Shown here piece after piece: positions 2,090 through 48,553 of a stretch of 64,000 bases of DNA. Source of the DNA: Chrysomallon squamiferum. Its lineage: Eukaryota > Animalia > Mollusca. The translations under genes were made by a program, and so were the position numbers. Under the pieces are notes generated by a model. It saw only the letters and a program-made list of their open reading frames with translations, had not been told where the DNA came from and searched no databases. Positions within the stretch are counted from its first letter, which is position 1. Every line of letters begins with the position of its first letter. Where the stretch lies: positions 1,178,001 to 1,242,000 of the forward strand of contig CM022676.1 in assembly GCA_012295275.1 (NCBI GenBank), read 5' to 3'.

Positions 2090-2102
2090 GTTGTTGTTGT
2101 TG

Positions 2103-2152
<50 letters not shown>

Positions 2153-12686: not shown

Positions 12687-12757
12687 GGTTACATTTTATG
12701 TTATCTAACTCCGATTTTATATATATATATATATATTTTTTTTTTCCCCCCCTGCAG

Positions 12758-15241: not shown

Positions 15242-15295
<54 letters not shown>

Positions 15296-20939: not shown

Positions 20940-21832
20940 CTATACAAGATATCCACGCATCTCTGTTCCATTGTATACATGCATGTCTTGTGGTAAATTG
21001 TTCACTGTGGGTCCATCATAGTTAGGATTGTTTATTATATTAGGTGACACTGATGCAAAGGATCCTGAAAAATACAAATGATCGAAAATATTAACAGTAC
21101 ATAATTATTCTTCCAGTTACTGATTCCAGATTCTTACTTTCCTTTTTTTTCCTTTTTTCTTGTTCTTTTGTTTGTTTGTTTTTTGTTTCTTTACTATTTT
21201 CAGCTAAATAAATGTACATCTGTTTATAGAAAATATGATTCTTCGAGTAACTATCTTAAACTATCTTAAATAGCTATTAGACAACAGAAAACATATTTAA
21301 AAAAAATAATTGTAATAAATAAATAAATAAAAATAAAATGCAGCAATAGGTATTATACATTAAAAGCAATAAATTATCTTCATATATCAATAATTGAAAA
21401 AAAATATATTTTTATTTTAATTAAAAATCAAAATACTGTAATAAAAACTTATATTTAAGATAATATTTAAGTAATATTTAAGATAAGTCACCAGTACTTT
21501 TTTCTTCTTTGGTTTCAAAACCTGTTTTAAAAAGATCTACCTCGTTCTTTATGAATAAGAGTAGATAATGCTTTACTTTTTTTTTTAAGTTGTGCAGTTT
21601 CATTTGAAAAAACTTATATTACTGTGTTATTATATGTTATTCCAAGCAAATTATGGTATGTTAATAAACTGTAAGAAATGGAGATAGGGAAAATAAATGG
21701 TAGAGAGGGCTTTTTTCATATATTTAAAGAATAAATAAATAAACAAATAAAACTGGAGACAAGCAAAATAAAAAGTGTAATCTGCAAGGTGATTATATTT
21801 AAACAGATAAAGACAAACACTGTGAGACTTGC

Positions 21833-21872
<40 letters not shown>

Positions 21873-22586
21873 GTTTTCATTGGTAAGATAATTATATTTT
21901 AAAACAAACTTACATGCTTCAAATAAAAGCATTATTTATTATATAAGTAATAAATCTAACAAGTTACCATCTATAATGATTTTTTAAAAAGAAGTTTAAA
22001 AAAGAAAATAAAAGCAATAAAGGAAAGAAAACCTCCACAAAGCAGAAACACACAATCATAGAAATGAAAAAAACAAACAAAAAAAAGCAGATTAACAAGC
22101 AAATATCTATTCACTGACGTGAACAAATATATAAATTATCAATATAAAATTTTAGTAATGAAGGTTTTAATCAAATTTAGTAAGGAAACTACAAAGCTGA
22201 ATGAAAGTTAATTATGAAGATGAATTTGTAGAACCAACCCCAGTGTCACTTCAAGTATAACTAAGTTAGATGTTTTTTACTTTAAATATCTTAAATCTTG
22301 AGAAAACAAATATAAATAAGTAGAATCTGTCTTGAATCAAACTATAGAACATTGATTTATTTATATATGATTCTTATTTTAGTTTCAGTGCAGATAATTA
22401 ATTTGTATAATTCAGATTTATTCTAAGCCCATACATATAAAACTATAAACTAAAAATTATGATGAACTTATTTTTCTAACAAATTTTATTTGTGAATTAG
22501 TCTGATGCTATAGTCTTTAAAAAATATTATGAAATTATTTTTGCTTATTAATTTAAAAATAATTTAAAAAATATATATATAAATAA

Positions 22587-22630
<44 letters not shown>

Positions 22631-22920
22631 ATTGTGCTTATTTTTCTTTATATTCTTTTTTTTTAAAATTATCATGTTTAAAAAGCATTGTTCATAACAA
22701 TATAAATAAAATTAAAATAATAATACTCTTTCAAGATTTAAAAATTAGTATTATAACCTTGAAGTGACATTAAAAAGCAGAAATTGAAAATAAAGTAAGA
22801 TCAATTTTAATTACACAACTTACTAAACCCAAGTAAATAAGACTTTCACCATCAATTATTTTCCTCTGGGAACTGAGAAAAAATATAAATCAATATATAT
22901 AGTAAAAATTAGAGACTCTC

Positions 22921-22951
<31 letters not shown>

Positions 22952-25900
22952 TAAAAAATGTAACAATACAAAAAGCTAATTATTTAAATTAATATCTTAA
23001 AATCTTCCAATTTTTGTCCAGTCTCTAAATTTTACACTTACATATTTCCACAACAGAATAAAAAAAAATAATAATAAAAAAAAAAAAAAAAATGATTTCT
23101 GCCTTTTTATTTCTGTTCAGTGATAAAATGCTATAAAAATACCATAATAAATATCTGGGGGCTACCTGAATTGAATATTCTTATATTAGTCTTATTTTTT
23201 TGTTTGTAAGTTAATTTTTTTCACTGACTGTTAAACATGCATCACAGATTGCTCTACCATGCAGTTGTTTCAAAATTCATGCCATGTATAAAATGAAACA
23301 TAATTCCATAAAGGCATGCAAAAAGATGATGTATATTTACAATACATAGTTTTAATAGTTGTAATAAGCTGTCTTTTTCATTAATCCAAAAATGTTTATA
23401 AATTAAAAAGAAAGGGATAAAACACAGATTATTAAATTTACTGGAAGGGAATGCAGGTAGATCTGACGAATTAAAATTATTAAAAAAAAAAAAAAAAAAA
23501 AATTCTTGGATTATATTCTAAGCATTTAGTAAAAAAAAATAATAAAAAAAATAATTATAATAACAATAAACATAAATAAACAAAAAATAATAATTTATAA
23601 ATAAATAAATAATAAAATAAGAATAATAAAAATAATAATCATAATCATAATAATAATAATAATAAAAGCAAATTAACAATTTAAAACCAAATTATGAATT
23701 ATGGAATATCAGCTTTAAAGCAAAATAATAGAGCACAGGGAATTTATTTGTATATATTTTTTATTATGAAGATAAAGTTTTACCTGGGAGAGAGGTATAT
23801 CTGTTTGCAGCAGGCTGCTCCATATTTCGACTTGACATTCGCGGTGGAGGTGTAGGTGGAGCTCTGGGCTGAAAAAAACAAACAAATAAATTAAATTAAA
23901 AAATAAATAAAATAAAATAAATAAATAAATATTCTGTTTAACTTTTACCAAAAATTTCATGAAATAACTTTAGTCTTTTACAAATTTAAACCATACAGGA
24001 TATTTTATACAGGATAATACAAAACATCTACATTAAGCAAACATTTACATGTTTGATATTTTTGAAACTATATTTATTCAAGCAGATTAAGAAAAGATTA
24101 AACACTAATTAAACCTAATGAAGAAAAGTACAAAATAAGACTAAACAGATTTATAGAGAAAATAAACAGATAGATTACATACATAAACATACATTCACAT
24201 ACGCACTCATGGTGTCACACATGCACACGCACACAAACACACACACAAACACACAGGTATGACAAACCTTTGAAGGTTTTTGTTCTCGAATTCTCAGTGC
24301 TTTTGGAATAGCTGGAGATCCTTTTGGTCCTTTAGCACCTGCTTTCGTGAGATTTTCATTTGATCTTTCCCTCTGTCTCAGAGACTTCATTGACTCAGTG
24401 TCCCTCCTGTCTTGATCACTTAGCGATTTCTGTCTGTCAAATGACAGATCATGTCCAGAAAAACGCTTCTCTTGTCTCTGAAGGTAATCTGTAGATTTAA
24501 TTATTTTAAATTATTTAATTAAAAAAACAAAACAGCAGGTAACAATTGAAATTAAACACACTGTAACAGTTGTGCAAAAATAAATGAATAAATGAATGAA
24601 TAAATAAAAAAATAAATAATGTTCTAATATAAATTGTTGCACTAATTCTGTAATTGTAAATATTATTTACATAATTCTTTAGTTAATTCAAATATTTATT
24701 ACTGATACACATTTTAAACTTGTGTATGATTCATAAATAAAAATATGAAATAATAATATTTTTTTAGTAACAGAGTTCAGTTGTTGCTATCAGTTAACGT
24801 TACTTAATTTATAATAATTAATAGTAATCAAATCAATTTTTTTTTGTTCAGGGATGAGAATCCTGGTAGTAAAAAGAGTAATAAATATAAATAGCTTATT
24901 TTAGTATTTTGTATTTTTCCTCTTTATATCCCCAACCCTGCTGGTAATTAGAACCTGTTATCACAGATCTTTATATAATGAAATTGTCTTTACAGTTTAC
25001 CCAAAGCATCAAAGTAAATTACTTTATCCAGAACAATTTGGATAGTTGCTCAATTACTATTTATCCAGAACAGGTCATACATTTACACATCACAAAATTC
25101 CAAACTTCTAACCAAATATTATTTTCTAACCTTTCTCATTTACCCATTTACCCATTTAGTCACATATTCATTTCGGACAAATTTATAGGTTTAAACAGAA
25201 ATTTCAAATGATCTGTCCAGTAAATAAGGGTGTACTTCTGAACAAACAAAATTGTTCCAAAGAATGATAAAAATGCTGTCCTATAACCAACTTTGAAAAT
25301 CATTAATTAACTGTGGGCCTTTTTGAAACATTTTGTGAAATTCCAGTCATTAACAGACACCAAATGACAGTCAACTTCTGAAAGTTACCCACAGAGTCAA
25401 GAAACAATAAACTGTTCCTTCTCTTCCAGCAAAATGGTCACTAGTAGTTATTTTACAAAATTCAGACCCAGAAAAAAATTTCCTACACAATTCTCATCCC
25501 TGTTACGTACCAGGGTAATTAATCATTCTGAACGAACCTCGTCGCATTTCTTGTATTGTGTTTGGAGTGCCTAGATCTGTATGGTGTAATGATGGTCTTC
25601 TGCTTTCATCACGCTGTAAAATCAATCAACCAATTTATAACAATATTTGTAGTTCACACAGAAACTGAGTTTTAAAAATAATATATATATATCTCTTTGA
25701 AAACATTATTTACAGCAGTAAATGTGTGTACCTTAAATAACAACAAAAAAAAAAAAAAAAAAAAAACAAAACAAACAATACATGAATAAATAAATAAATA
25801 AACAAATAAATAAATAAAACAAAAAATAATAATAATAAAATAAAAAACTTACATGGTATTCTTCTGCATATTCATCAAGATACTGATCAAGTTGTCTGTT

Positions 25901-26009
25901 TGGTTCATATTCAATCTCATCATCACTCCTATCTTCACACTTGTACTGTTTATACATCTCAAACACAGATTTACCTGAAACCAAAACAGCAGTTTTATTT
26001 ATTTACCTG

Positions 26010-26065
<56 letters not shown>

Positions 26066-29000
26066 GAAAATTCATTTATAAATAAAGCATTTTGTTATTA
26101 AAATACTATTTGCTTATTTCTATTAACCAATAAAAAAATTAAATTTACTGAAAGCTAAAAAATCATTTTATCTTTGATGTGTTAATAAGTTTAATAAGTT
26201 TGGAACATTAAAACTTACATTAAATCATTTCTTTTTTTAATAATTGTATTATAATTATATAAAAATGGAACATGTTAAATAAAAAGAAATGTAAATGAAA
26301 TGTAAATTTTCCTTTATAATAAATAATAATAATTCGTAAAATTTAAAAACAATAATAAAAAATCAAAACATTAAAAATTAATAATTAGCTGTTAAAAAAA
26401 AAAAAATATATATATATATATATAAAAAAAACAAAAAAAAAAAAATGTTAATTTCCCATAATATAAATATAATAATTAAATATATTAACTCACTTTCCAT
26501 TTTCTTTTTGCGACGTCGAACAAAGTACAAGATGAGTCCAACATTAAGTGACAGCAGAAAGACACCAACAATACAAACAATAAGGATTATTATTATAGGA
26601 ACATCATCCTTGTCTTTCAGAGAAGATGCTGATATGTCTTCTGGTGGAGCAATGTCTGAAATTACAGAGTAAAAATACTATGATGATGGTAAGTAATGAA
26701 ACTAATGTTTCTCAGTAAACAAACAGACTGAAATTCACACATACGTTGTAAGTAAGAAATCAAACAATAAAGCTTCACTGAAAATATAATAATCTCATAT
26801 TTGTTCTCAAAAAGAAATCAGAATTCACCTTCTTTTATGTAGGAATTATGTAAATTTGATTGACAAATTAAAAAATAATCAAACAGAACAAAAACCAAAT
26901 CAAACAAGAGGAAAAAAGAAAAGAATTAATGTTGCTTTTGTACTAAATTAATATAAATAAATGCAAAAGTTGAAACTGTTATAAATAATTTTAATAATAA
27001 TAAAAGAAAATGTAAATAAAAGATTAAGTAACAACAATTCTTTTAATTGTTAACACTGGAACAAATATATTACAAAATCAGATAATTTTGTTTGTGAATG
27101 TATATATCTGTGTTATGTATGTGTGTGTGTCTGTGCATGTGTGCACACGTTCGTGTGTTGTATTATGTTGTTCTGCTGCATGTAGTGTCTATATGTTTGT
27201 ATGAAGATGTATTCGTATGTATATTTATCATGCTTGTGTGTTTGTGTAAATTTTATCAGGTATGGTATGAATATGTGTGAAAAGGACCATGCAGATTTTC
27301 TACAAAATAATTTTAAACAAGTCTCCTCAAAAGTATTTAAAAATAAATAATAACACAAAATATTATATATTTAACAATAACTTTAGGAAAGAATTAAAAC
27401 TGAAACAAAAAATGAAATGTTCATCTCACCAGTCTCATTAAAATTAAATGGCTTTTCAGCTGTTAAAAATTAAAATAAATGTTCAAGATGTTTTGAAATA
27501 TAAATGTTCAAGATGTTTTGAAATATAAATGTTTCAGTATTAAATTTTTTTTAAAATGTTACTTTTCTCAAAGATGAACAAAAAACAGAATAGAACAGAA
27601 TAGAACAGAATAGAAAAGAACAGAATAGAATAGAATAGAACAGGTCAGGAAGGTAATTACAAAACAAAATAAAAATAAATAATTCTGATTTTTATTTTTA
27701 ATGTTATGTTTCCTGGATGAGAAGGTTAACAGAACAGAAATCTTACTTGATGTCTTTGCCTTTATTATGTTTGGCTGGAAAATGCTTCTCCCTTTCTCAT
27801 TAAATGCTAACACAGTTATTTCATATTCCTGTCCTAGCTTCAGTCCTGCAAAAGTTTTAAACACTGTACGAATGTATTGACATTTATTACTGCTTTCTTC
27901 TGCACTTTTCTTTTGCTGTTACATTATAATGTTTTTTACTTTACAATTTATAAACACTACACATTTTACTTCTTCTTCTTTTTTTTTTTCTTAAATTTGG
28001 TAATGTTAGTTAGAGAAATAGGTATCACAAACCTGGTATAGTGAAAACTGAGGTCCCTGAAGAACTGATATCAATGTAGACAAAACCCCTTGCTCCAACC
28101 TGTCTATAGCGAACCTGAAAACTCTGGACAAGTCCACCATCAAAGCCAGGCTTCCATGATATTGTGATCGAGTTGTGTGTTGCATTAACAAACTGTATGT
28201 CATATGGTGGGTCTGGAGCACCTATAATTTGAAGAAAAAAACAAAGTAAAGATAACTAAAATTAAGTTGATTTTATTTTTACTTTCAATTTTAGTTTATA
28301 TTTAAAATATTTAAAATAAAATTCATTTTTTTAAATTTATTTTCACAGCTTACATTAAAAATATTCATAATAAAGTTGATTCTTTTAGATTTAAAATCAA
28401 AGTAATATTAAAAAACAGAAATAAAACAGGAGACAAAGCAAACTGAACAAGTAATTATAGAAACATTCTCACTTGTGCCATCTAAAACAATCTCAAATCT
28501 ATCAGTGCCCTTCTCATTGATAGCTGTGCACACATACAGGCCATAGTCAGCCTTCATCACATTCTTTATAATCAGCTCGTTGTGATAGTGGACCAGGTCC
28601 TTCTCCTTAGTTTTCACTGTGTACTTGCCAGTGGTCACATCCAGGAGCATCCCATTCTGTAAATATATTAACACATTACTTGTTATAATTACTAATAATC
28701 AGAAAATGTCATGTGCATTTGCATTCCATTCTGAAAACCTAATATTACCTAATATAATTACAAACAATCAGAAAATGCTGGGGGTTTTAAAGTAAGACAA
28801 CTCTTTCAAATTGTTTCCTGACACAAACGTAGTTACATCCCCAGTTATGTAAGATTTGTATACAGCCTAATGTTATCTTAAAACAATTTTGGATGATTTT
28901 ATACATATATATAATTTTATAATATAATGTTATTAAATAATAATCAATATGCTTGATTAATTATTAGACCCATGTCTTGTCAAAGACAGAGAAATTCTAT

Positions 29001-29550
29001 TATTTGCTTTAAAAAATCATTTAAAATATTTATGTATATGAAAAGTATTTATAAGTTAATCCCAATTATACCACATTTCCATTTAATTATAACAAAGATA
29101 CAAACAAATATACAATTATCTAGTTAACTGAAAAAGAAAAACATTTAAAACTATTTTACTTCATGGAAATCAGATTCTGAACTAATCATGTTAACAGATG
29201 ATAAATAAATGAATATGCACTGAAAGAGTAAGCACTGAACAGATATTACAGAAAATTAGAGAATATTCTAAATAGTAACTACTAACCTTAGACCAGCTGA
29301 ATGTTATGTTGGGTGCACCTTCAGCATTGCAGATAAGAATTCCTTTTGATTTCATTTCACTGGCTGCCTTGGCAAACTGTGGTGATTTGTCAATGTAGGG
29401 AGGATCTTTTGAAATAACAATGTAGCATTGCTAATGATAATATTTTGGCTATTTTGAATAAGTTATGCAAAATGCCATCATAAATTATGATGATTTGTAA
29501 ATTAACATAAAAAATATCACAATTTAAGTGAAAACAACAAAATCTCTCTC

Positions 29551-29598
<48 letters not shown>

Positions 29599-32500
29599 TA
29601 TATATATATATACACACAATAAATAACTTACATTTTCATCATAAATCAATAATGGTTAATAAATTAATTAAAAATTGCAATACTCACAGTGAACCTGAAA
29701 CAACATTGATATGATACACATTAAAAACAAAAATCAAAATGACAATAAAAGACTCACATTTGACAATTAACGTTGCCTTCTTAGAGGCTGGTTTTCCAAT
29801 TCTGTTATCTGCTGTACACTTAAACACTCCAGTATCTGTTCTCTTCAGGTCATACACTGTCAGATAGGCCTTGCCTTTCTCGATAGTCTGTTTGGTTTTA
29901 CTCATATCATAGTCATCACGTGACCATGACACCAGATTCTTAACCATTGGGTTGGCATTAGCAACACATTCAAAAAATGCAGTTCCACCTTCATCCTCCA
30001 TCACAGATGATGTGATTCTCGTTATAGTAGCTTCATCTAGAAAATAGCAAGAAATATATGAAATTATACATTTATCTGTTATATCTACAGTAAATAAATT
30101 TTTATAAGGACTTTTCTTTTCCAATTTAAATCTAATCAGAGTGAATTAATAAAAATAAAAACAAAACTAAACCTGGTGTAAATTAAGTACAGGTACCAAA
30201 CCATTTATCCAGCTTCCAGAAATCTAGAAAATCCAGAAAACCTGCTTTTTGGTTTAAACTGGCTACTTTTGAATTAGGCATGCTTTTATTTAGTTCTGTA
30301 ATGTGACAGTATTGCTGTATACAGTAAATCCTATCACAATAAGTTATGGTTTCAGTTTATTCTCATTTTCATTTATTGTACTGTAAAAAAAACTTGCAGA
30401 AATGCAACTTACTAGTGAAAACTGCAGGTATTTTAACAATTTAAAATGAATTACTAAAGATCAGACAGTCACTGCTTTAGAAGTGTATTAATTTGTGTCT
30501 GCTAAATACAATTTCATTGTTTATTTTTCACTGTTTATTTTATTTTTAAGTAAAGATTTAATCTGGAACACCTCTGGTCAAATAAATGGTTTAGTAGGTA
30601 GAAGAAAACAGTTTACATTAATAAAACAAATTGATTTAAAAAAAAACTTACATCTAACATTGATGGTAAAGTTATAATCTGTAGTTCCTTCTTTGTTAGT
30701 GGCTCTCATTGTGAAGTTTCCTTTATCTGTTTTTCTAATCCTTGTGATGTTCAGTATCCCATTGACCAGTTTGAATCTGGGAATGTCGCTGGTCATTGTG
30801 AGCTTCACACCCTCATGAAACATCTCGTATTTCATTGCCGCTGGGTTGCCATATGCTGTATAATTCAGACTCCTGCTTTCACCAGCCACCATTACTACCT
30901 TCTTTGGTGATACAGCAGGGTTAAACTCTGGTTTAACTGAAACAAACATAATATCAAAAATAAAAATTTCTCTCTCAAATCTATATTCAGATTATGGAAT
31001 TCTGGATTGTTTTGTTCTTTTTCATTTGAAAAATAAAAAAAAAAAAAGAATTATGACTGGAAGTTTAATATCAATATTCAGTTTAAATATGTTAGTTTAA
31101 TAATAGATTATGGAGCTTTGGTTGTTTGTTATTTTCCTTATGACACTGAAGCTAAGCTACAGCTTCACTTAAAAAAATTAAATATTATATTAAAATAAAA
31201 TAAAACAAAAGTTTAAATTATTGTAACTGAAAGTTTAGCGTTCAGTTTGTGACATCATATGGAATTAATATTTGACTGTGTTCATAAAACACTTTGTTTC
31301 ACTTACATAAAACTTGTAACGTCAAAGCATCAGTTACAGCTCGTCCAAACATGGCATTTGTAGCTCTACAGCCATAATAAGAATTGTGGTCATCTGAGAC
31401 AGGAATAAACTCCAGGACATTTGTTGTTGACCAGCCACCATTTTCAGCTTCCACTGATCCCCGATTTGTTCCTCGGATGTCTCTCCCATCACGAATCCAT
31501 GTTATATCTGCAGCTGGATTGCTGGACGCACAGACACAAGTCAGATTCATCATCTCACCAACCCTCGGCTCATCTGGCCAGGCAGTAATAGCAACAGATG
31601 CAGGCGGGACTGAAAATAGTTCAGTCATAGATAATGTACATAATGGAAACACCCTCATTTTTACAAACACATGCAAGTGCAAATATAGTAAAATCTCAAT
31701 GACCTAACCTCTCTTACTTGTGATTTCAGTTATTATTATAACAATTTTTGTTTTTAAGTTTCCTGTTACAAAAACAGGTTTAAATTAATTAACATAAATA
31801 AAGAAACACCAAATTTTACTGTACTTTAAATATTATATGGCAAATAAAAAAATACTCACAAAGAACAGTCAAATTAACTGAGGTTTCCAGTGGGGTTGGG
31901 GTGGCATCATTTGATGCAGTACACTTGAAGGAAGCACCATTATCACTTGCCTTGACCACAACAGCTATCTCAGCTGAAGCGATGTTACCCATTACCTTAT
32001 TTTCTGAGGGTATCTTAACATCTCCTGAAGAAACAAAGGAAAAAAAAAATCTAAATTATTTCAGCAGTGTAGAGAAGATTCTTCCTTTACTATAAATAAT
32101 GTTTTCTGAGGGAATCTCAACTTCTCCTGAAAAAAATGTTAAAACAAAATGTGAATATATCTCTGTCAAAGTAGATGCTTTCTAAACCATAGGAAGATGA
32201 ATTCTGAGGTATTCTTTACAATCTTGTAAAAAAAGAGATTTTAAAAAATTAAGAATTATTTCCCCCAGTATAAAGCTGTCAAAGCAGATTCTTTCTGAAC
32301 TACAGGAAAATAAATTATAAATAATGTTTAACTGCTAATTTGAAATAACTCATGAATGAGGACTGTGGATTTTGTTTCAGTTAAAAATTTGCATCAATGA
32401 CAAAGCATATCTTTTCTTAACCACATGAAGATTAATTGTAAATAATGATTATGATATGATCTGAAATAGCTCATGAAATGGTAATGGATTTCCCTTCAGA

Positions 32501-34227
32501 CAATTTACACACACTTGTTAAGAGCACTCATAATCTGAAAACATCATTGCTTATGACAGTCCTGAAAAGATGATCTGCCTCTGATACAATGTCTGAACAT
32601 CTATTTATTGAAAATATGATAAAGAAATAATTAATCTTTATCTTGAGCATGAACTAAATATCAGACTAGATATTTCAGTTGAGTTAAGAATGATAACCTA
32701 CCTTTATACCACTTTATAGTGGCAAGAGGGTTTCCTCCTACAGCTAAACAGTTCATTCTCTCAACTTCTCCTGCCTTGATTGGAGCACCCTCTGTGTATC
32801 CAGATATCACAGGTGCCCTTGGAGGATCTAAACAAAATTTCAAATACCATTAATAATAATAGTAATAATAATAATAATAAAATTAAAATTATAAAATAAA
32901 GTGCTTATACTCTATATGTATGTGTGTGTGTTGGGGGATTACATTCTTTAAGTTTTCAATTTACCATATACTCTATATGTATGTATGTGTGTTGGGGGGA
33001 TTACATTCTTTAAGTTTTCAATTTACCATAATCATAGTTAACATACTATAGCTAATTTACAAACTTTCAGGATCATTTACAAAATGGCATATTTATATAA
33101 GTACGTATAATTTTTTTAATTTATTTATTTATTTTTTGATGATTTCCTGTTATCAGCCTTATGTGATTTACTCAAACCTCAGAAGTAAGATTATACAAGT
33201 GTTCATTTTTTATGATATTAAAAATATGAACTGAAAACAATTTCTATTTTATATTTTCATTATTCACAACTGTACATTAAAATTGTTTAATATTCATTTG
33301 TTCATGTGGAAATAGGGTCACTACATAAAGCATGATGTGTTTTTTAAAATTAAAAACATAGATTGAAAACAATTTTAAATTTATATTATCAGTAGTTATA
33401 TTCACAAATGAATAGTAAAATAGGTTTAATGTCTATTGTGGAGCTAAGTGTGAGTTTTAAACTTGGACTGAAATAAAGAACTTACAGAGTACACTCAGAG
33501 TGACAGTGTCAGCCACATTCTGCCCCAGGGCTGTGTTTGTAGCCTGGCAGGTATACACCAGGTTGTGATCCTGATCAGACAGCCTCACTTTCACTGTGGA
33601 CACGGATATAAAACCACCATCAGGCGATGGTGTAACCTTTGTGTTGGCTTCTGGCAACTGCCGCCCTCGGGCAAACCAGGTAATGACAGCTGCAGGGTTG
33701 CTGTTTGAAGACACACATGTAAGTTTGACTGTTTCCCCAGCCTTCTTGGGACTTTCTCCACCTGTTATTGTCACCTTGCTAGGAGGAACTGAAATAAATA
33801 AAAATAAAATAATAAAAATTGTGTGAAAGAAAAATATCTGAAACAAATGGTTTCATGATTTCATTCTTCTGAAGTCCAGCAACAAATTCAACCACTAAAT
33901 AAAAGAACAAAAGAAAAATTAATCTGAAGTTATTTCAAATATTTAGACATATTTACATTTCTGTAAACTGAGTTTTCTTCAATAAATAAAGAGCCAAACA
34001 AATAAATTTATGATAAATTCAGTCAAAATTTGGAATATCTTTATGTAATAATTCCAGAGATCTGATTCTAATTATTTCACCATATGCGAAGATATCAGGT
34101 GATAACATATAATGATGCACAAACTGAAATACAAAGAAATAATTAGCTTAGATTTAAATAGTTCGATAACATTAAACTATTATTCTTTTTTTTTTCCATT
34201 TTCTTTTGGTGTGTGTGTGTTTCTAGT

Positions 34228-34258
<31 letters not shown>

Positions 34259-35128
34259 ATTTTTCTTTCTACAAATAAAAGAAATGCAGTTTAAAAAGAA
34301 CAAACCAATATTGCTTAATTATCTCTTTCTGAAATTCTATTTACAGTAAAAGCCTCAAAATGCTGAAGCAGTTAACATCATTTCTGAATAATGGACTAAC
34401 CATATTTGTTGTGTATGGTTATAAAATATATTGTTTTATCTGTTTTTCTCATAAAACTTTGGTAATAAGTTTTCACTTTACATATGTTCACTGGTAATAT
34501 TTAGCCAATTATATATCATTAAATTAACATAAAGATCATAAATTCTACCTAATCTTATTTTGAAACTGACAATGTATTAAAGTGAACTACTGCTAACACG
34601 AGCAATGATTTAAATATCTCTATACTTCTATTTATTTTGTTTTCTTTTTTCTTTTGTTTTCCATCTAATCTTTATTAATAACAAAATATAACAAGATGAA
34701 TGATGAAGAATAAAATCTTCACAGAAACAAAATAAAAAAATAAAAAAATTAAATAAATCTGTTTGCATATATGCAGTTATGCATGATTCTAATTGTGAAG
34801 GGGTAAAATAGCAACATTCACATATTTTGTAACAGTATATATTTACTGTCATACAATAAAACTACAAAATAATAACTTGGAAATCTAAAAAAAATTTTCT
34901 TACACCATATGTCCATACTGTCACTGTAATGTTATATTAACTGTCAGTTTGGTTAGTGTGGTAATATGATTTGCTAAATACAAAGCTGTATCATTTTCAG
35001 TAAAAGTAAAAACATTTAAATTACAAAACCTCAATGCCATATTTATATCCATTTGTTCTCTTTCTCCTTAAATTTAAAGCTTTATTGTAGAATCAATTAT
35101 ATTTATTTTGAACAAAACATTAAAAAGC

Positions 35129-35159
<31 letters not shown>

Positions 35160-35550
35160 AATATATAAAATAAAATAAAATAAAATAAAATAAAGAATAA
35201 AAGAACTAAAAAAAAAGAAAAAAGCAAAAAAAGCAAAAGGACACTCAAAAACCATTCCCACTATTTAAATGCCCTTTTTCTCAACTATTTTCCCAATACT
35301 ATAAAGCAGTATGGTGTACAATGAAGCCAGTCATTCATAAACTGCATGCAAGCATGTGTATGTCTGATGGAACCCTTTAGAGTTAATCATTATTATCAAA
35401 AGGTATTTGGAATGACCAGCTATTTATTTTCATGATTTAATTCTGTATAAAAGAGTAAATCACTAAAAATAATAGAAATTAGGAAATTCAAATAAATGCT
35501 CAAAACTCAGTTCTTAAAATAATGGCACTTTTTATCGGTTATGTAAAAAC

Positions 35551-35615
<65 letters not shown>

Positions 35616-38089
35616 CAAAAAATAATAACGATCACTGAATAAAAATATGAACAAATAATAAATATCAAAAAAAAATAAAGAAGTAAAGCATTTTTTGATG
35701 AATAAAATGGTGAAACAAAAATTTCTTTCACTTCACAAAAAACTTCTTTCAAGTCCTAAAATGGAGAAATAACTGTTTTCAATGTTCAAAAGTAGAAACA
35801 AGAATGTACAAAACCATCTTGTTTTTATACAGAAAATGTAGTAAAAATTGTAGAAAAAAAAGAATTTAGTTAAAAAACAAAAACAACAAAAACAAAACAA
35901 ACAACAAAACAGGAATGTAAAAAGAATACAAAAATTAAAAATGTTTAATGTACAAAATAAAGAAACGTATATATTTAGCAAGTTTTTAATGTACTAGAAG
36001 TAGTTAACACTAAAATATAAAATAACAAATAATTTAACTCAGCAAAAATAATGTAATTTGGAAATGTAAATAATCTGATTTTGAAAATCTCACCGTAACT
36101 AACATTTTTTGCTACAATAGAATCTAAAATAATAATAAAATGTTATTTAAAACAATAATTAACACTATAAACAAACAAATATTTAAAGTTTAATATTTAT
36201 CTTTACTGGTTTTATATTGTCACTACACTGTGGCTACACCATATTATAAATTTAAAAATATATTAATTTGATTGAAAGAATGATATTAAAAATTAAATTT
36301 TATCTATTACTTTCTTTTTATTATTATAAGTATTTATACAGATATAGATACAGATATAATGAAAATAAAATGCAGATCAAACAAATGAAATAAAAATTTT
36401 TAAATTAAATGAAACCTTTATAGTGAAATAAATTTTAAAATGTTAGCAACTCTTACCAATGGTAATATTTTCTGTAGCTAGAAATTCTATAATGATAATG
36501 ATAATAATGAGATTAATGTTACAATTAAATAAATAATATGAACAAATCAAAAATACTATTATTAATCCATCTAAATACTCTTTTATTTATTATTTTTATT
36601 TTATTTTTTACCTTTTTAAATATGATCAAATTAAATTACTTAAAACTATCACAACCATAAAATATATCACTATAATTAAGTAATGTGATCAACGAAATAA
36701 TTGGAATAAAAAATAAATAAAAAGTGAACACAGTATTTAACATAGTTGTTTTACTATTTATATGATTCTGTCTCTTGGTAATAGTACATTGCTTAAGAAA
36801 TAATAAAATAAAAATAAATAAAAATCAAATAACAAAAAATCAATTGCAGAGTTAAAACTGCTGTGGAAGTCTCCATGGACCACCTGACTGCAGCAGATGA
36901 GAAGTATTCTACACAAATTTCTCTTCACTTTAATAATTTATTGTTTCAGTTACCATGAGTCTGAAGTTATTTATAAGTCACATAAGAAAATTAAAATAAA
37001 ATAAAACATATTTTATTTAAAATATTTAGTTTTTTCTAATTTCAAATAAATAAATAAATAAATAAACCAATCTTTTAATGAAGGAAATTTAAATATTTAA
37101 AGAAACTTTTTCCTTACCAAAAGTGGTATTTTCAGGAAAATATAAACCTAGAATGAAACATTTTATATACTGTACATTTGAAATCATTATCAACCTGAAA
37201 AGTAGCAATATTTAAAGTGACATTTGAAGTCATATATATATTGAACTACTATATATACTAATATATATACTAAAAAAAGTACAAAAAAAACCCTTAAGAT
37301 TATTTTTATAATGAACAATAAACAAAACCACTTTGCCTACAGCTAATTTAGGTAAAAAGAACCACAGTTGTGAGCTGTATTTATAACAACTTTAAAAATG
37401 TTGTGCTGACTCTGCAAATTATAAATTCTTACACTATTCTAAAACAATGATTGCTGTCTTTCTGAGCTGAAGAATTTCCTAATAAAAAATCATTTAAAAG
37501 AAATATTAATTTTAATCAGAAAACATTTCTGTTAAATAACATTTTTTTTTCTCACTTTTTTAAGAGACACACACACACACACTTCTTTTTAATTTATACC
37601 TAATTATTATATATTTGATTAGATATTAAATATGCAAGCCAAATCCATAATTATAAATCTTTTGTCAATAAAGAAACAAAGAAACAAGAAAACAAATGAA
37701 AGGGTCAAAACTAATTTCAAGTTTTAATATGACATTTGAAAATAATTCTTTAAAATACACATACTGAAAAAAACAAAACAACAAAAAACAAAATCAAACT
37801 CAAGTCAAAATACAAAGATAAGAAAAACACAACAAAAAAAAACAGTACTTGATTGGATCATTAGTTTTACACCTCTTTAGCGGATGTTTTTAGACAGTTT
37901 GCAAAAAAAAAAAAAAAAATCATACAAAAAAAAAAATAAATAAAAAATAATTATTAAAACAAAAATATTCCATTTACTAACTACACATACCTTTGATGAC
38001 TGTTAAGGCATAAACCAGAAACAAATATATTTTCTGCACATAAATTTAATAATGACTTCTGTTGTATTTATATAAAAGCAAATTAAAAA

Positions 38090-38121
<32 letters not shown>

Positions 38122-38348
38122 ATTCAGGTGATATTAAAAAGAAAAAAATAACCAAAGTATTTTCAACAGTTCTCACCAACTAAAATTTTTCTGATCTCCT
38201 CTTCTGTCAATTTTATGAATAACCAAGAAAATAAATAAATAAAATATGAAACATTACATTTTAGGTGGCAGGAACATTCTCAGAGAAAAATCTGTACATG
38301 AATATAAACATAACATGAACAAAAGCAACATAAATAAATATTCACTTG

Positions 38349-38380
<32 letters not shown>

Positions 38381-38502
38381 GTGAGAAAATTAATATTTAC
38401 AATTTAATTTAAACATTAACAATTGCATAACAGAGACATTTTATATATTTATTTTAAAAATAATCCAAATTCATCATTAATCATTTATTTTAATGACTGA
38501 TA

Positions 38503-38534
<32 letters not shown>

Positions 38535-41177
38535 ATTGATGATAATAATTAATAATAAAATAAATGGGAAAAAAGGGGAAACAACACAATTCAAAATAAA
38601 TTTAAAAAAATAATAATAAACAAACAAACAAACAAACAAACAAACAAATAAAAAATAAAACAAAGCAAAAACAATAATTCAGAGAAAAGAAAATTAAACA
38701 CAGAAGTGACATTTTATTGATACTTTGGGAATTGCTCTTGAAAAAGAAAATCTTGTTATAGAAAATTTTAACTGATCTAGTCCTGTATTTAAATTTATAA
38801 TGCTGAATTGAATTTTCTTTCATGGAGATATTACTAAGAAATAGATAAATAGGTAGATAGGTATATATTAGATAGACAGACAGAGAAATAGTTAGATAAA
38901 CAGACATATAGACAGATAAATAGAGATAGACAGATAAATGAAGATAGACAGATAGACAGAAAATTAGTAATTATTAAAAACAATTATATTTTTCTTCTAC
39001 AAATCTGGAATAATGATTAAAGTCACAAACATAAAATGGTATTTAAATCATTAATAAAACAAGAAAATGCAAATATAATCAACAATGAAATATAAAATTA
39101 AAAACACAATATTTTTTTTCAACAATTCTTACCATAATCTTCATCATCTACTTCTTCCCTTACTGGTTTCAATTATATGATATAAAATAATTAAATATAT
39201 TCGGTATTTCACATTATGTTAAGCATAATGACTAAATAACAACATCAGATATTCTATCTGACTGTTCATTTTTCTGCAGCTGTTTCTGTTTATATAATAA
39301 GAACTTGTAAAGTAACAGGCTAAAGTAGAGTAAAGAAAGAGTATATTAATGGAAAGAGTACAGTAATTCAGACATAAAACAAAAACAATCTTTCAAATCT
39401 CTTGCTTCAGCCAGTTTTTGAACTTTTCTCTTCCCCCTGCTCTACATTAAGAATTTACAACATCAAAATCTGTAATATCAGTAATACAATAATATTGTAA
39501 TACAGTGTTATTAACTGTTGATGATCCAAACTAATGCCTTGGTACTGGTTACTTTTACTACTTTTGAATTTTTGCTTTTAAGCAATACCAACCTTAGTAG
39601 GAAGAGCTTAATAAACTATAGTTCTAAAATATTAAAATAAACAGATTTACTACCAGATATAACACAACATGCATATGTTTATACACACACATACAGCCAC
39701 ACACATACATCAACACACACACACACACAGTCACACACACAAACACACACACACACACACAAAAAAGAAGAAAAAAGAAAGAATAATAAATTTCTCATTA
39801 TAACAAAACATTTTATTATTTGGATTAGAAGGAAGAAAAGAAACTCAAAACCCTTGAAATATTATCAAATGCATGTTACTGTTATTTACAAATTTTAGAA
39901 ACAAATACCATTCAGTGTGTTTCAGCAGATTCTGTAAAAGTAAATAAAAAACTAAACTTACAGTGTACAGTGAGTTTAATCTGAGTGCTGAGAGGCTTTT
40001 CTGTGATCAGGTTGGAAACCTCACAACGGTAGATGGCATTGTTATCACTGGCATCAACAATAAAGGTGTATTCATTCACAAATTTGTTAGCTCCACTGAA
40101 ATATGAATAGTCCACCTTCTCCTGATTTCTGTACCAAACTACCCTGGGTACTGGGTTGCCTCCTCGTGTGGTACATATCAGACGTATTGTGTCATTTACC
40201 CGAATCACTGTAGAATTGGAATAACCAGTTATCTGTGGAGGGCCAGGAGGTACTGAAAATATATTAAGAAGATATTTTTACACCCACACATTTTGAAATT
40301 AATCCAGATCATTATGAACCTACACATTATATATCTTGCCAGACTGATTAATTATAATAACCACAGCTGAGAACAGCTATGAAAGAGTTAATTAAAATAA
40401 GTAATTAATTAACTGTGTGTGTGTTTGTATGTCATAATGTTCATATCTAGTTAACAGTGATACAGCAATATTAAAAATAATATTTAAATCAACAATATTT
40501 GAATGATCTTTCTATCAATTCCATTTCATGTTAGATTTAAGGAACTTTCTGTTGGTATAAAATAAACAATCATTTCTAGCAGCATAGTATTAAAAAAATT
40601 ATATTATATATATATATGTATATATATTATATGAAATGTATAAATTTATAATTTTTATTCATTTATCATTCATTCATTCACCCTATATCCATTTATTTAT
40701 TTATTTATTTATTTATTAGTTTTAAGTTATTTATTTATTAATTTGTTGCACAACTTACCTAGAATGGTAATATTTACAACAGTGGATAAGACATCTCCTT
40801 GTAAAGCACTGTTAGTTGCATGACATGAATACAAAACGTTGTTCTCCTCATAACTATGTCGCCAGGTAATTGTAATCACACTCTTTGCATTCATCCTTTT
40901 GTCACCAGGAATTTCATCAACTGAATATTTGATATTTTTGGTAACCTTCACTCCATTCCTGTACCATTCTAAAGCAGCAGGCGGCCTACCATTCCTGGCA
41001 ACACATGTCAACTCTACCTTAAACTTAGTGTTAGGTACATTGACACTGGATCCATTACTGTAGCCTTCAATCTCTGGCATGTCAGGAGGAACTGTAATAA
41101 TAATAACAATAATAATAATAATAGGGGTTAATAATAATAATAACAATAATAATAATAGTGTTAATAATAATAATAAC

Positions 41178-41209
<32 letters not shown>

Positions 41210-41485
41210 TAGTAGTAATAGTAATAATTACAGTGATAATAATATTTATATGTTGTGTGTACATGTATTTTGTAAATTTTGCACAAAATATCTCACAATT
41301 GTGTTTAAACATTTCTGTTAATAAAGACAACATAACATTAAAAATTTTAAAATCAGTGTTAACATACTATAAAAATGTATAAAACTATTATTAATATGAA
41401 TAAATTTAAATCATAATAACAGTTTTAAGAAATATGATTTTGACATACATTAAAATTATAAATGAACAAAGCCCAAGTTTAAATG

Positions 41486-41528
<43 letters not shown>

Positions 41529-44458
41529 TAAAGAGACTTTATGAATGTGTGAGAGTATATATGTGAATATGTGTTCATGTGCATACTTGCTTGAGCATGA
41601 GTGTTAATGCATGTGTCTGTATGTGTTTGCATGTTTGAATATATGTGTGAATATATGACTACAAGCTCATGTCTGTTTGTGTGTTGATATATTTGTGAAT
41701 GTAAGCATGCTTGTTTTTGTGCATACATGTTTATATCTGGTTGTCATATTTACCTAGAACAGTGAGAAAAGCTGAAGCTTGTATAGCTGGATCACCATTG
41801 GATCCTGGTAAAACCTGGCAGTTATATTCCGCATCATCTTCAAGATGTGTATTTTCAATATGCAAGTTGAACTCCTCTCCATTTGAAGACACATGTAAAC
41901 GTTTATAGCCTGGAATTTCTGGATTAAAACCTGTAGTGATTTAAAAATATATTTTTATAGTGTATCATAATTTATTAACTGTATTTTAAAATCACAGTTT
42001 TGAAGGAGAGAGAGAAATAACAGAGTGAATGTATTTGTGTTTGTATGATTATGTATATCTGTGTGTTAACAAATAAAGATTATGAGTTGATATCAAATAG
42101 CTTTTTGCAGATAAATACATATACATATAAAATTAAAGAATCTACAGCATGAGTGCAGATTTTCTGAAGATGTGAACAACAGTGTGAGTGCAACATGTTA
42201 ACAACTGTTTAAATTAATTTGTTTTTCTGTTAATTGTTAAAAATATTGATGTCTACAAATTGTTTAAAATATATAAATTATGATAGTTAAGTATTGAAAA
42301 TTTTAATGATGTACAAAAGGATTTTTAAAATTTTTTCCTCTCTTTTTTCTTTATTCATATTATTTTTTTTTAAGTCTATGTGACTTATATATATTCTCTT
42401 AATATATAAACCAATCTTGTCTCAGGATCTTCTATTTTTTGTAAATGTAAATAAGATCAAATGTATACAAAACCAGCTAGTTAAAGGAAATTGACAATTT
42501 TATTTTCATGTTTTCAGAAGACTGTTATAGATTTCTCTGTCATAATTTAATGCTTTCTTCTAAGTATAGCAAATCTTTAAAAAATTAAAATAAACATTTA
42601 AAACACTGCAAGGTTATTAACATTTCCTGCCAGATGTTTCAATTTTCTTTCTATCCACCTCATTTGCAATACTCAAGTTTCACTGATGAAAATAAATAAT
42701 TATATTAATAATGCTCCATATTAATAATTTCTATAAAAATGCACAGGCTCTGTAACAATTCATCATATTAGTTTAGTTTTTTTTAATTTTCTCAATACCC
42801 AGCTGTTCTTGTTATCCTTTGAACACGGTTGTCACTGAGAATTAATTAAATTTATCAACAGATCAAACCAAAAACCACTGACAAATTTAGCATGTTTTTC
42901 CAGAAATCTTTTTCCAGAAATATAAATTTATTTTACCAGACAATGCATTTTAATTACCAGTCAGAATTAGATTTAATTATAAAAGTTATCTCCATATCAG
43001 TGTCTACTGTACTGCTATTTTGCAATTTATTTCATCTTCAATGCATATTAAAAAAAAATAATTGAATTACTTTTAAAATTAATAAAAACATTCAGCACTG
43101 AAGGACCTTACAACAGTCAAGTGATAAGAAAATATTGCAGATTTTAAAGAATATTATTATGGAATGTGTGAAAAGTTAAGTTTTGATGTAGTTTATGCTA
43201 GATTTATAAACCTGTGGGGGTGCAAATAAAATTTTACTAATAAATAAAATAAATTTCAAAAAAAAAAAAAATATGATATATGATTAAGTAAAACAAATCA
43301 AAACAAATAATACTAATAATACTAATAGTAATAGTGATAGTAATAAAAAAAAAAAAAAAAAATCGACTTGAAAATAAAATCAATAATAATATTAAATTAA
43401 TAACAAAATGGAGATTTGGTGAACAAATTTAATATTAGTTAATTATTCATAAAATATAAAATTTTGTTTCTAATTGTATTTTATATTTTTGTTTTTAACA
43501 ATGCAGTCAATAACCAATGCATTTAAAACAAAATCTTTTCTTTCATTTTCAAATAAAATGTAATATACCTTAGTGTTAGAACCTAACTATTACACTGTCT
43601 GATAATTACCATTAACATCTAGATATACAAACATAATAAATATTTCATTGACAAGCAAGTTCTTAATTTTGATACTGACGTTGAATAATTGAAATGCCAG
43701 AACTGCACCTCAGGTGATTATGGTAAACATCAAAGTTACTTCTGATTTAGTTTGGTATGCCTAATGTGCATGAAACAGAAGATAACTGCTGAATTAGTAG
43801 TAAGAAATGACCATGTGAGAATGTTTCACTATTAGTCACATACAAACATGTTTAAGAAAACTGGATCATAGCCAAACTGATGTAACTGGTTTTCTAAGAG
43901 ACAAATAAAGTGAATGTTTCAGAAGAAATATTAACAATGACATGATAAGCTAAATAAATACAGAACTGGTAATGACTGAGACAAAATATTTGGTAAAGAT
44001 GTATAGACAGTGATCATAAACATGTTACTATTTTCTTCTGGTTTTTACATAGCAATCTAAACCACAGATTTATTAGTTCAGTTACACTGAATATATATGT
44101 AGTTTGTATTTTATTTCTATATTTACCACCATCAGAATCATTATCAGATACATTTTATACATTAAGTCATTAACAATCTTGCTGAGTTTATTAATATTTG
44201 TATTTGTCCTTTCATGTACAACAAGACAGCCAGAAGAAAAATATCACTTGAAGATATAAAATGATTTTTTTTTTCTTATTCTGTATGCTAATTATTTTTA
44301 TTTCCTAATTATAGACTCTCTCTCATATCCACATCCACCTAGCCACATCACACATACAAAACATGCACATGCACACTCCATACATAACTTTCTTTTAATT
44401 CTACCTGAAATAATTTCCTCTCTTAATTTTCTTACAGATAAAATAGTGTTTGTAAATG

Positions 44459-44521
<63 letters not shown>

Positions 44522-47398
44522 TTAATAATATTAATAATAATAATAAGTAGTAGTGGTAGTAGTAGTAGTAGTAGTGGTAGTAGTAGTAGTAGTGGTAGTA
44601 GTAGTAGTACAGGTAGTAGTAGTAATAATAATAATAACAACAATAATAATAATAGTGAAAAAGAAAAGAAATGCTTTTCATTGACTTCCACTCCCAGTTT
44701 CCTGTAGGTCTTGCTTTATTTAGAAGGATCTAAAATGTTAAAGTTCTTGTAAATACTGCCATGGCACCATGACTTACTATGTTTACATAACATAACATTT
44801 ATTGTTCTCACCAGACAGCAAACTATTTTACTGCAACAACACAGCACCGAAAAAAAATTACTGACATTTCATTTAGTTTTAAAATAACACCTTAACAAAA
44901 TATAGCATTCTTGAAAACATTACTAAAGTAGTTGAGTGTACATTTACTAAACTTTTGTCCAGGCTGACAACAAAAGCATTGTGTGTTTTATCTTTGTGTC
45001 ATCACCATTCCATTTTCACAAGATAGACCTATGTGTCAGTTATCTCAAGAATGGCATATATGTCTTTTTTTTTTTTACCTCACTTTATTTTTACCTCTTT
45101 CTTCCTTAGTTTCTTTTTTTCTTTCTTTTTTTTTCTTTTATTTTCTGAATTTTTTTCCCAATGTCATATAACTAATTTTTTCTTTACTTAATATTTTAAG
45201 GATTTTTTTATCTGAACTATTTTAGTTCATTTTTCTCAAATTCTTTTTACTTTGTTCATTTCAGACATATTATGAGAATAACTCAAGACTGGGAGAGCAT
45301 CTTTCATACCAGTTAACAAAGACGGAAATATACAAAGAAAGCTAATATATACATATTTAAATTATATGAATTAACACTGACAATATGATGGTATCAATAC
45401 TAATTACTTATATTTATGTTGCTGTAATGAGAAAGAGGCTATATATCAATGAGATGTGTAACTTGCATTAATAATTATTAATGTTAAATTATAAAGATCT
45501 AACTTTAAATTTTTGTTTGTTCATTCCAGTCTTGTGTTTTACAAGAGTTCTGACCAAGACATGTTAAAAAAAATATATGAAAAAAGATTAAAAGAAAAAT
45601 ATTCCTATTTAAAGAATTAAAGTAAATTAGTCTACTGTCTATGGTGCTAATTGTCATGTAATATCAGACACAGATCTAGGTACAAGCAATATAATGTAAT
45701 GGAAACAAGTTGAGGGAGCCATGAAAAAGCACAAGTAATCATGGCTTTTGCCTATCTATCGTGTGGATGTTCTCGGAAGATACAGCTCTGTCTGGAGATG
45801 AAAGAAAGCAATCAACTTTGTTTCACCAGTAACAATACCTATATAATTAGGTGGCCTACAGAGACTGGGAGTCTAACTCAATTTGTAGCTGGCAAGATAA
45901 TGTTTATGGTTGCTGCTTGAAAGTTGTTAAAGCAGCTCAATTTCACTGACAGTCCATGCTGAAAAAGCTATTTGACAGGCAAGACGTATCATTAAAGGAA
46001 TTTTCTTGTAATTATACGAAATTAAAAAAAATAAAATTATAAAACGAAAACTAAAAACATTATTTTTAATTTAAGATTGAAGACTGCTTTTAATCAACAG
46101 TAATTTAATAGAAAAATGATCTGGCAAACACTTATTAAATATTCATATAAGAAGGTTTGTTACTTAGTGATGAAATTTTGTTATTAAATTATATTGTTTA
46201 AATTCTCCTTTAACAAAGAACCAATGAGTGATATCAAATGCATTTTTCTGTGAGAAAAGTAACAATGGTTTACTAATGTCTTTATTTCTAAAATAAAATG
46301 TATTCTTTTAGAGTTTTGTATTTAAAAATCATCATCATTATTTAAAATTTCTCCAAAATAACTATTAAGACATTTTCTACAGTTCTTTTGGGCAGATGCA
46401 TAAGCATATACCAGATGCAAAGAAAATGAAGGTAATTTAGTATTTAAACAGAGAAATTTTCTATCAAATAGGTCCTGTAGTACAAACCCTGCTGGAAAAG
46501 CAACGCTGTCATTTGTTAGTGAAAATGTTGGGTTCACTAAACTAAAGATTTGCATTTAGTTTCATTTATAGTAAAAAAAAAAAAAACTTTTTTTTATCTT
46601 CTTAAACTTCATACAATATTTTTTAATTTAAAAGAAAAGTTTTTGTGGAGTGAAGAATTTCAAAAGTCACTAATGGAATCTAATTTTCTTTTCTACATTT
46701 TGAAAAGACCACACTATTTCATTTTTTCTTTAATTCCACGGGAGTGTTCTATTTATATTTGCTGTAATATCACAGAATGAAAATAGTTTGTGTGGTAGAA
46801 TGGATCCCTGTAGATATTTCTGTGTATTTGTTCACTAATAGCTCAACAAACAATGTGAGAAAATATGAGGCAATGGCACACAGGTGCTGTCTGATTTTTA
46901 TCAGGATTTCTCAGATTCTTAAAACATGCACAACAGCTTTTTATCAGCTGAAATTTTGGGTCAAATTTATTTTAAAAAAACAAAACAATAAGGATAAAAA
47001 TTTAAAAAATGATGGATTAAAAAGAAAAGACTATAATATTAAAAAATCAACAATATAAAAATTAATATAACTTAAAAAAAAAAAAATAATAATATACAGG
47101 TAAAATACTAACACTAATAATGACAATGGATGATGATGATAAGAAGATGAAAAATCATCAAATGAATAGTTTCTAGCACTGTTAAGTGGTTCTAAATATT
47201 TATATGATTACATATATTTTTTAATTTTGTAAATAGGTCACACTTGCGTTTCAGAAGTTGGCAGGAAGACATACTGTTTTGATATTATTTGATATACTAA
47301 AAATTAATATCATAAGGAACCTAATTGAATAAGTGTAATGAAATCTATCAGAGAAGAAACATAAAGTAGATAAAGTTTGGAAGCAAAATTTTATTTTC

Positions 47399-47477
<79 letters not shown>

Positions 47478-48553
47478 ATTTCAACATAATAAACAGATAA
47501 AAATAAAATGCTGAATAAAACACAAAAATGCAGATTACATTGGTAGTTGTACATAATTCTTTTTTACTGTGAGAAATGTTTAACTTGACTAAGTGGAAGC
47601 ACTTATTTACAAGAAGGAAACCTGTTCTGCATTGACCTCAATACCATCTTTTCTGACAGGAAAAATAATAAAAATACCTAAACTAATGTAAATGTGAAAC
47701 GACTTCATAATGTTATTCTATTTTTCATGGTCAGAAATAGGTAAAAATGAAAACAAGATGGCAGAAATGAAATAAATAACTTGCAAATGTATTGACAATT
47801 TAATTTCTATACATCAACAGTAACTTTATGAATGGATTGATAAAATATAAAAAGCTATTAATAGTTGAAGATTATTTTAAAACAATAAAATATATTAAGC
47901 TTTTGCTGTTATATTAAAGAAATAGTAACTGAGGAGAAATTCCCAAATGTACACTCTGAAGAGGTATCTTGAAAAATGTAATAATATAACTATCTTCAGA
48001 AGAAAAAAAAAGTCCTCTGCAGAATATAATGTGAATCTGTCACACGAGGGTAAAATTCATTTAATGTGAATAGCTGAACAAGATCAATGCATTTATTTAA
48101 TGAAATCTGGAATCAATGATAAATTAAACTTGCTTTTTAATAATAACTTCTCCAGCCAGATACATCAGTAACAAAATGAACATAACCAATATATTGATAT
48201 TAGAACTTATGACAGACAAGTTAATCTAGATCTGAAACCATGTCTTTATACCAAGTCTTTTAAATATACAGATATTACATACCAAGAGCAAATCCATCCT
48301 TGGTCCATTGAATTTTACCAACTCGGTCCTTCACAGAACAGCGCATCACAGCAGACAGGCCCAAAATCACAGACGTGTTCTGAGGTTTCTCACTAAACCG
48401 TTGTCTTCCTAACACTGGAATTAAAAGATTGCATGGATAAAAATATAAATAATGTAGATATAAATTAATATTGTAAGGTGATGCAATAAGAAGGATAAAT
48501 GAACTATTATAGATGCTCATATAAATTGATAAAAACATATCCACCATAACACA

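Follow-up and report, generated by a model that had tools for sequence, protein, structure and literature searches.

A gated microexon array at the Ig3-Ig4 joint of a nephrin-like gene in Chrysomallon squamiferum: a proposed splice switch

In the mollusc Chrysomallon squamiferum, an orthologue of nephrin, Sns and SYG-2, identified as such by its sequence, carries an array of six in-frame microexon cassettes (ME1 to ME6) in the intron between its third and fourth immunoglobulin (Ig) domains, Ig3 and Ig4, and five of the six are found spliced in RNA. The gene is located on the minus strand of a 64,000-nucleotide stretch of contig CM022676.1 (assembly GCA_012295275.1, positions 1,178,001 to 1,242,000), here referred to as the window, from whose first letter all coordinates are counted. 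The array is supported by RNA, restricted to one lineage, and located at a joint that shows no other variation in the nephrin family among the homologue matches listed. With somewhat better than even confidence, we infer that it functions as a gated, mostly two-state splice switch by which nephrin is either rigid and lattice-forming or long, flexible, and shielded by glycans.

Nephrin-family ectodomains are treated as rods of fixed length whose geometry builds the fishnet of the slit diaphragm. A natural, switchable insert of 49 residues at or between the proposed crossing points of this lattice would make it possible to test whether slit width and sieving are set by the length and rigidity of the rod. 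The array also illustrates a microexon set that probably grew by duplication within a single lineage and whose junction codons carry an ordering rule, and such arrays are overlooked by standard gene models. No report of such an array in nephrins was found in the literature covered, with micro-exon/mini-exon spellings, most subscription journals, and supplements (including that of the genome paper) outside this coverage.

The host gene and its Ig3-Ig4 joint

The exon map of the gene comprises nine Ig domains, one FN3 domain, one transmembrane (TM) segment, and a cytoplasmic tail in about 1300 codons, and the order of nine Ig, FN3 and TM agrees with Sns as described in a passage of PMC12489029. 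Pfam Ig matches were obtained for all seven Ig exons submitted. The best homologue matches of the protein carry the name nephrin-like, the nearest named one being that of Gigantopelta aegis (62-93% identity per domain, highest in Ig4), and the best PDB match of this G. aegis orthologue, taken as a proxy for the window protein, is SYG-2 (4ofy, E 8e-48). By its Ig/FN3/TM map and homologue matches, the gene is thus the nephrin orthologue that an earlier note on this stretch had named. It extends at least from 48427 to 20943, and its signal-peptide exon was not located. The features that matter for the array are as follows (nt = nucleotides).

20943..48427, minus strand: host gene, nephrin/Sns/SYG-2 orthologue, from a tblastn map of G. 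aegis isoform X3
39962..40252, minus strand: Ig3 exon, phase 1-1; Ig_3 match with E 8e-12; 73% identical to G. aegis; its last base, T, sets the junction codon
39133..39162, minus strand: ME1, 30 nt, acidic, ending D-D-E-D-Y; in DNA, and in RNA by a 58-nt loose contig end; joins Ig3 without a stop
38177..38203, minus strand: ME2, 27 nt; in DNA and RNA; stop if directly after Ig3; flanks like those of ME1
37991..37999, minus strand: ME3, 9-nt candidate; in DNA only; left out of the inclusion contig
37118..37147, minus strand: ME4, 30 nt, N-T-T sequon; in DNA and RNA; free Cys if first after Ig3
36457..36486, minus strand: ME5, 30 nt, N-I-T sequon; in DNA and RNA; stop if first after Ig3; best match to the first half of the G. 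aegis insert
36094..36123, minus strand: ME6, 30 nt, N-V-S sequon; in DNA and RNA; spliced to Ig4; best match to the second half of the G. aegis insert
33486..33788, minus strand: Ig4 exon, the most conserved domain versus G. aegis (93 of 100 residues identical); covered by RNA

When the cassettes are skipped, a single Phe is present at the Ig3-Ig4 joint, the same as in other molluscs, and such a zero-length linker is typical of the nephrin family. The inclusion form breaks this linker-less pattern.

Six cassettes in the intron

The Ig3-Ig4 intron (39961-33789, minus strand, 6173 nt) holds six AG..GT cassettes, with the positions and donors that the earlier note had reported. Each has a length that is a multiple of three, is internally stop-free, has G as its final base, and is no longer than 51 nt, the microexon size limit taken as in PMC6687390. 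Summed, the six amount to 156 nt or 52 amino acids (aa), which corrects the 45 aa previously given for full inclusion. A cassette rule, written after the cassettes had been seen (YAG, 6-51 nt, multiple of three, stop-free, GTRAG or GTATG donor), returned exactly ME1-ME6 from this intron. In 300 dinucleotide shuffles of the intron, the mean was 0.11 cassettes (maximum 1) when a final G was required and 1.21 (maximum 5) when it was not, and none of the 300 reached six; a chance origin of the array is thereby rejected, as had been argued beforehand. The rule returned no cassette in the flanks, the antisense intron, the whole plus strand of the window, or, in its strict form, the likewise long intron that splits Ig1 (41931-48282, minus strand, 6352 nt), and a relaxed donor scan of the Ig3-Ig4 intron gave no additional cassette longer than 3 nt.

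Inclusion and skipping in RNA

Of five sequencing runs listed, four were RNA, from four samples of one study (RNA X1 to RNA X4), and their Logan contigs were placed on 33450-38300; Ig3 and ME1 are outside this range and were read from the loose end of a contig. In RNA X1, a contig of 206 nt at depth 23, comparable to the depth of 37 of the Ig4 contig, contains the start of Ig4, ME6, ME5, ME4, and ME2, connected via three canonical CT..AC joints. Its loose end of 58 nt agrees, in its length and in its first 30 letters, with what is predicted for ME1 together with 29 nt of Ig3. The contig hence joins Ig3, ME1, ME2, ME4, ME5, ME6, and Ig4, is unbranched over 147 nt, and bypasses ME3 by its joint 37145-38175. 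The observed insert of 147 nt encodes 49 aa with 13 acidic and four basic residues and three N-x-S/T sequons, so that the gain in length, acidic charge and sequons anticipated in the earlier note is borne out for this form.

A second contig of RNA X1, 3045 nt in length, terminates at the Ig4 acceptor, which indicates a branch point there. According to contig-end arithmetic at k=31, in which 63 alternative paths and the pre-mRNA were tested, only the direct Ig3-Ig4 skip yields a private contig of 29 Ig3 letters, 147 letters and 30 Ig4 letters. Since the contig ends match the direct skip only, the inclusion and skip forms likely coexist in RNA X1. In RNA X2, X3, and X4, the Ig4 contigs extend about 1101, 154, and 307 nt past the acceptor and ME2, ME4, ME5, and ME6 are uncovered, so these four are skipped there. 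Both inclusion and skipping are therefore seen directly for ME2, ME4, ME5, and ME6, and for ME1 inclusion is given by the loose end and skipping by the contig-end arithmetic. The cassettes thus behave as real alternatively spliced microexons, five of six in the RNA X1 contig; the contig joints gave spliced cassettes beside the skip, but as a single inclusion form from which ME3 is absent.

Three non-canonical joints (36893-38225, 37105-37518, and 38159-36013) were set aside as chance, since they are based on matches of 18-24 nt. Among 29 candidate short transcript fragments with an insert, none reached E<=0.001. A 196-nt intronic contig at 35270-35465 (depth 3.8, RNA X1) may be pre-mRNA, DNA carry-over or an unannotated transcript.

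Neural microexons of the SRRM4/eMIC type are marked by a UGC immediately before the acceptor, by inclusion in neural tissue, and by deep conservation. Among the six cassettes, ME3 alone has UGC close to its acceptor (at -11), and conservation of the cassettes was found only in G. aegis. With this UGC and its skipping between included neighbours, ME3 may be regulated separately, possibly in neurons.

Junction codons and the set of possible forms

The last base of Ig3 is T, the last base of every cassette is G, and ME2 and ME5 start with AA, so that a TAA stop arises when either of these two comes directly after Ig3; ME4 spliced directly to Ig3 gives a Cys at the junction. Across the 64 combinations, 46 are stop-free and 18 contain a stop (ME2 or ME5 first after Ig3), and four more have a free cysteine. 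The observed form has ME1 first, changing the junction base, and ME1 acts as its gatekeeper. The ordering rule read from these codons argues against free independent skipping but would allow a smaller set of forms.

The earlier note had envisaged up to 64 freely combined variants, whereas the only inclusion form seen is the five-exon block beside the direct skip. A milder combinatorial scheme, in which semi-independent skipping would create many linker lengths, charges, and glycan counts in up to 46 open forms, is considered unlikely. It accords with six frame-keeping cassettes that all end in G, leaving the order free once ME1, ME3, ME4 or ME6 is first, with the skipping of ME3 between included neighbours, which makes the array other than all-or-none, and with a shorter two-unit form in G. 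aegis. It is at odds with the 18 stop-containing and four cysteine-containing combinations, and with an inclusion contig that is unbranched over its 147 nt and whose ends match the full skip as only partner. Under the mostly two-state switch favoured here, a few extra isoforms are possible, e.g., with or without ME3.

Alternatively, the stops themselves could serve dose control, in that ME2 or ME5 directly on Ig3 would lead to a premature stop and then to decay or a secreted Ig1-3 decoy. Although two of the six cassettes give TAA after Ig3, no such junction was seen, the RNA X1 contig ends exclude a partner path with ME2 or ME5 first, and an AA start can be chance in AT-rich exons; dose control is accordingly held to be very improbable.

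Relatives and origin of the array

The homologue set contained 171 proteins, 163 of them scorable, drawn in part from the 120 of 293 matches listed; many are isoforms of one species and no vertebrate is among the named ones. Judged by the cysteine-to-cysteine spacing between Ig3 and Ig4, an insert is missing in 160 of the 163 scorable proteins among the matches listed, the insert-free taxa being gastropods, bivalves, a chiton, cephalopods, brachiopods, nemerteans, arthropods, and amphioxus. Annotation overlooks microexons, so that insert-free here means absent from gene models and transcripts. A wider search among 50%-identity representatives (150 of 730 listed) added 142 new proteins, of which 123 were scorable; 116 had a Cys-Cys distance of 39-48 and seven a longer one. 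Three of these seven look like read-through into an intron; the other four are low-scoring matches whose additional residues lie within a domain or at different pairs of domains. By eye, none of the seven resembles the cassettes.

The three proteins with an insert are isoforms X1, X2, and X4 of G. aegis (XP_041373931.1/933.1, 934.1, and 936.1), i.e., three of four RefSeq isoforms, whereas isoform X3 (935.1) is without it. This insert, taken from an automatic gene model, is located at the same joint and consists of 19 aa in two units of 10 and 9 residues, each closed by an N-x-S/T sequon and one further residue; its halves best match ME5 (score 20) and ME6 (score 13), in the same order. Among the scorable proteins of the matches listed, an optional insert at this joint is thus confined to G. 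aegis.

It is likely, from the sequences, that ME1 and ME2 are tandem duplicates and that the array as a whole arose by tandem duplication, in the lineage shared with Gigantopelta. The similarity of ME1 and ME2 (p 0.007 upstream, 0.033 exon, and 0.008 downstream, uncorrected) makes them the only pair of 21 with all three values below 0.05. ME4-6 mutually share 14-16 of 30 bases as well as the sequon position, and the distance of the sequon from the unit end is constant in three of three units here and two of two in G. aegis. The end of the Ig2 exon (40759-40775, minus strand) and that of ME5 (36457-36470, minus strand) share 13 identical bases encoding N-I-T-I, which may be chance or may mean that the cassette was derived from an Ig exon end.

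A nearly neutral accretion, in which a young exon underwent duplication in a single lineage and, having no selected function, is tolerated where a minority of transcripts or cells include it, would explain why the insert is missing in all other taxa checked (among the matches listed) and why its sequence is poorly conserved versus G. aegis. It sits less well with six of six cassettes keeping the frame, with five that have strong donors and are spliced at depth 23 versus 37 for the Ig4 contig, and with the fixed sequon distance, and it is given little chance. Another possibility is that the insert is a new binding or recognition site, not a spacer. Nine of its 13 acidic residues are located in ME1-ME2, where the acid-flanked tyrosine of ME1 (39133-39147) and three glutamates of ME2 (38203-38195) form across the junction what we take to be a likely tyrosine-sulfation context. 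Such a site would affect the binding of partners in the way that ROBO exon 6b and RPTP meB do: linker microexons alter the activity of ROBO1/2 (a passage of PMC6687390) and the binding of TrkC by RPTPsigma (a passage of PMC4239663). On the other hand, the annotated G. aegis insert has sequon units only, without the acidic part, and there is no known partner; we regard a binding site as quite unlikely.

Structure and proposed mechanism

In the proposed switch, a nephrin whose cassettes are skipped would keep the zero-length Ig3-Ig4 joint of other animals, and inclusion of the cassettes as a block would introduce an acidic spacer of 49 residues with three N-glycosylation sequons, probably flexible and glycosylated. 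The contour of the spacer is up to about 18 nm (49 residues x about 0.36 nm, a rule of thumb), and shorter as a coil. It is predicted to decouple the head (Ig1-3) from the stalk (Ig4-FN3), and the choice between the forms may be sample- or tissue-dependent. AlphaFold2 of the Ig3-insert-Ig4 segment of G. aegis gave both domains well folded, with pLDDT <50 for insert residues 102-111 and pTM 0.50, and AlphaFold2 of a zero-linker relative with the same 47 supporting rows gave pLDDT 93-98 over the joint and pTM 0.77.

The joint is at or between proposed lattice crossing points. The fly slit diaphragm measures 44 nm, and the favoured model in the passages of PMC12489029 has Sns Ig4-Ig4 crossings and names Ig4 as crucial; for mouse, bioRxiv 10.1101/2023.10.27.564405 describes 53 nm, contacts of Ig2/3 with Ig5, linkers that act as pivots, and glycans that act as shields, and SYG-1/SYG-2 are called rigid in PMC4239663. 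Given this position near the proposed crossing points, a spacer with three bulky glycans at the Ig3-Ig4 joint would likely shift or block lattice contacts, and nephrin junctions made with the long form would be looser or wider, or this form would stay out of a tight slit-diaphragm lattice.

Several points weigh against this reading. The inclusion form comes from one contig in one of four samples of one study; in RNA X2-X4, skipping concerns ME2, ME4, ME5, and ME6 only, as ME1, ME3, and Ig3 are beyond or below reach there; and contigs drop rare forms and indicate neither tissue nor reliable level. The zero-linker relative that served as fold control is another protein, with 43% identity to the Haliotis row, and thus a loose control. 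The exon boundaries of G. aegis are not visible and its 57 nt may form a single exon, the p-values for duplication singly fail correction for 63 tests, and the insert diverges far faster than Ig4, as expected for weak constraint. Glycan occupancy, localisation, and filter-size effects of the insert are predicted only.

A bolder reading, possible but doubtful, is that one snail lineage evolved a splice-tunable slit diaphragm, in which duplicated microexons would swap the rigid rod for longer, acidic, glycan-lined versions, so that in certain filters (e.g., rhogocytes exporting haemocyanin) or contacts the mesh would be wider or carry a different charge, with the stop-codon gate ordering the allowed lengths. 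In snail rhogocytes, according to a passage of PMC4619347, the slits measure about 20 nm, and anti-nephrin labelling is reported for the rhogocyte periphery in Lymnaea and not for this gene. If true, a splice-tunable slit diaphragm would be a natural experiment on whether nephrin geometry sets filter width.

Comparison with known systems

The muscle-specific domain of NCAM is located between FN3 domains and carries O-glycans; the snail block lies between Ig3 and Ig4 and has N-sequons, an acidic patch, and a stop-codon gate. The likeness, an analogy and not a homology, is that in both cases an Ig-superfamily adhesion protein has several small alternative exons for its ectodomain. In NCAM, exons 12A-12D are reported to be used as a single unit in heart, at levels that vary with site and stage from near 0 to 100%, and as a subset in brain (a passage of PMC2120321); here, one unbranched five-exon contig, of a kind that drops rare forms, may reflect a comparable block. 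Closer in position is exon 6b of ROBO1/2, a microexon for the Ig3-Ig4 linker whose inclusion alters receptor activity; however, as described in PMC6687390, this is a single exon, 9 or 12 bp long, with conservation across mammals and chickens and control by NOVA, whereas the snail has six exons for 49-52 aa in one lineage so far. The mini-exon meB of type IIa RPTPs likewise extends the linker between two Ig domains and adjusts trans-synaptic binding (a passage of PMC4239663), but with four residues in an already flexible receptor, compared to a long insert in a family described as rigid.

Schistosome micro-exon genes share with the array the tandem tiny exons in a spiralian and protein variation by skipping, but they are secreted and mostly built of micro-exons (a passage of bioRxiv 10.1101/2023.06.21.545858), whereas the snail array is one insert in a conserved nine-Ig receptor; with 156 nt in a gene of this size, a schistosome-type micro-exon gene is ruled out. 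Also close is the nephrin-like gene of G. aegis, with an optional insert at the identical joint and two sequon units matching ME5 and ME6 in order; its insert is shorter and the acidic part is absent from the annotation.

Other features of the window

Elsewhere, the cassette rule gave one cassette in 14 other introns tested, its sole window match outside the Ig3-Ig4 intron. No insert was present at this FN3-TM site in the homologue sequences compared there.

27430..27459, minus strand: candidate seventh microexon in the FN3-TM intron, 30 nt, phase 1-1; in DNA only; CAG acceptor, GTGAGA donor, ending in an N-E-T sequon

Two neighbouring genes were noted. Exons of another Ig-domain gene are located at about 425-2220 (minus strand), with weak Ig matches under curated cut-offs, and a class C GPCR (G protein-coupled receptor) gene is located at about 12709-16060 (plus strand; 7tm_3, E 3e-11), with a long C-terminal exon and convergent with the nephrin gene.

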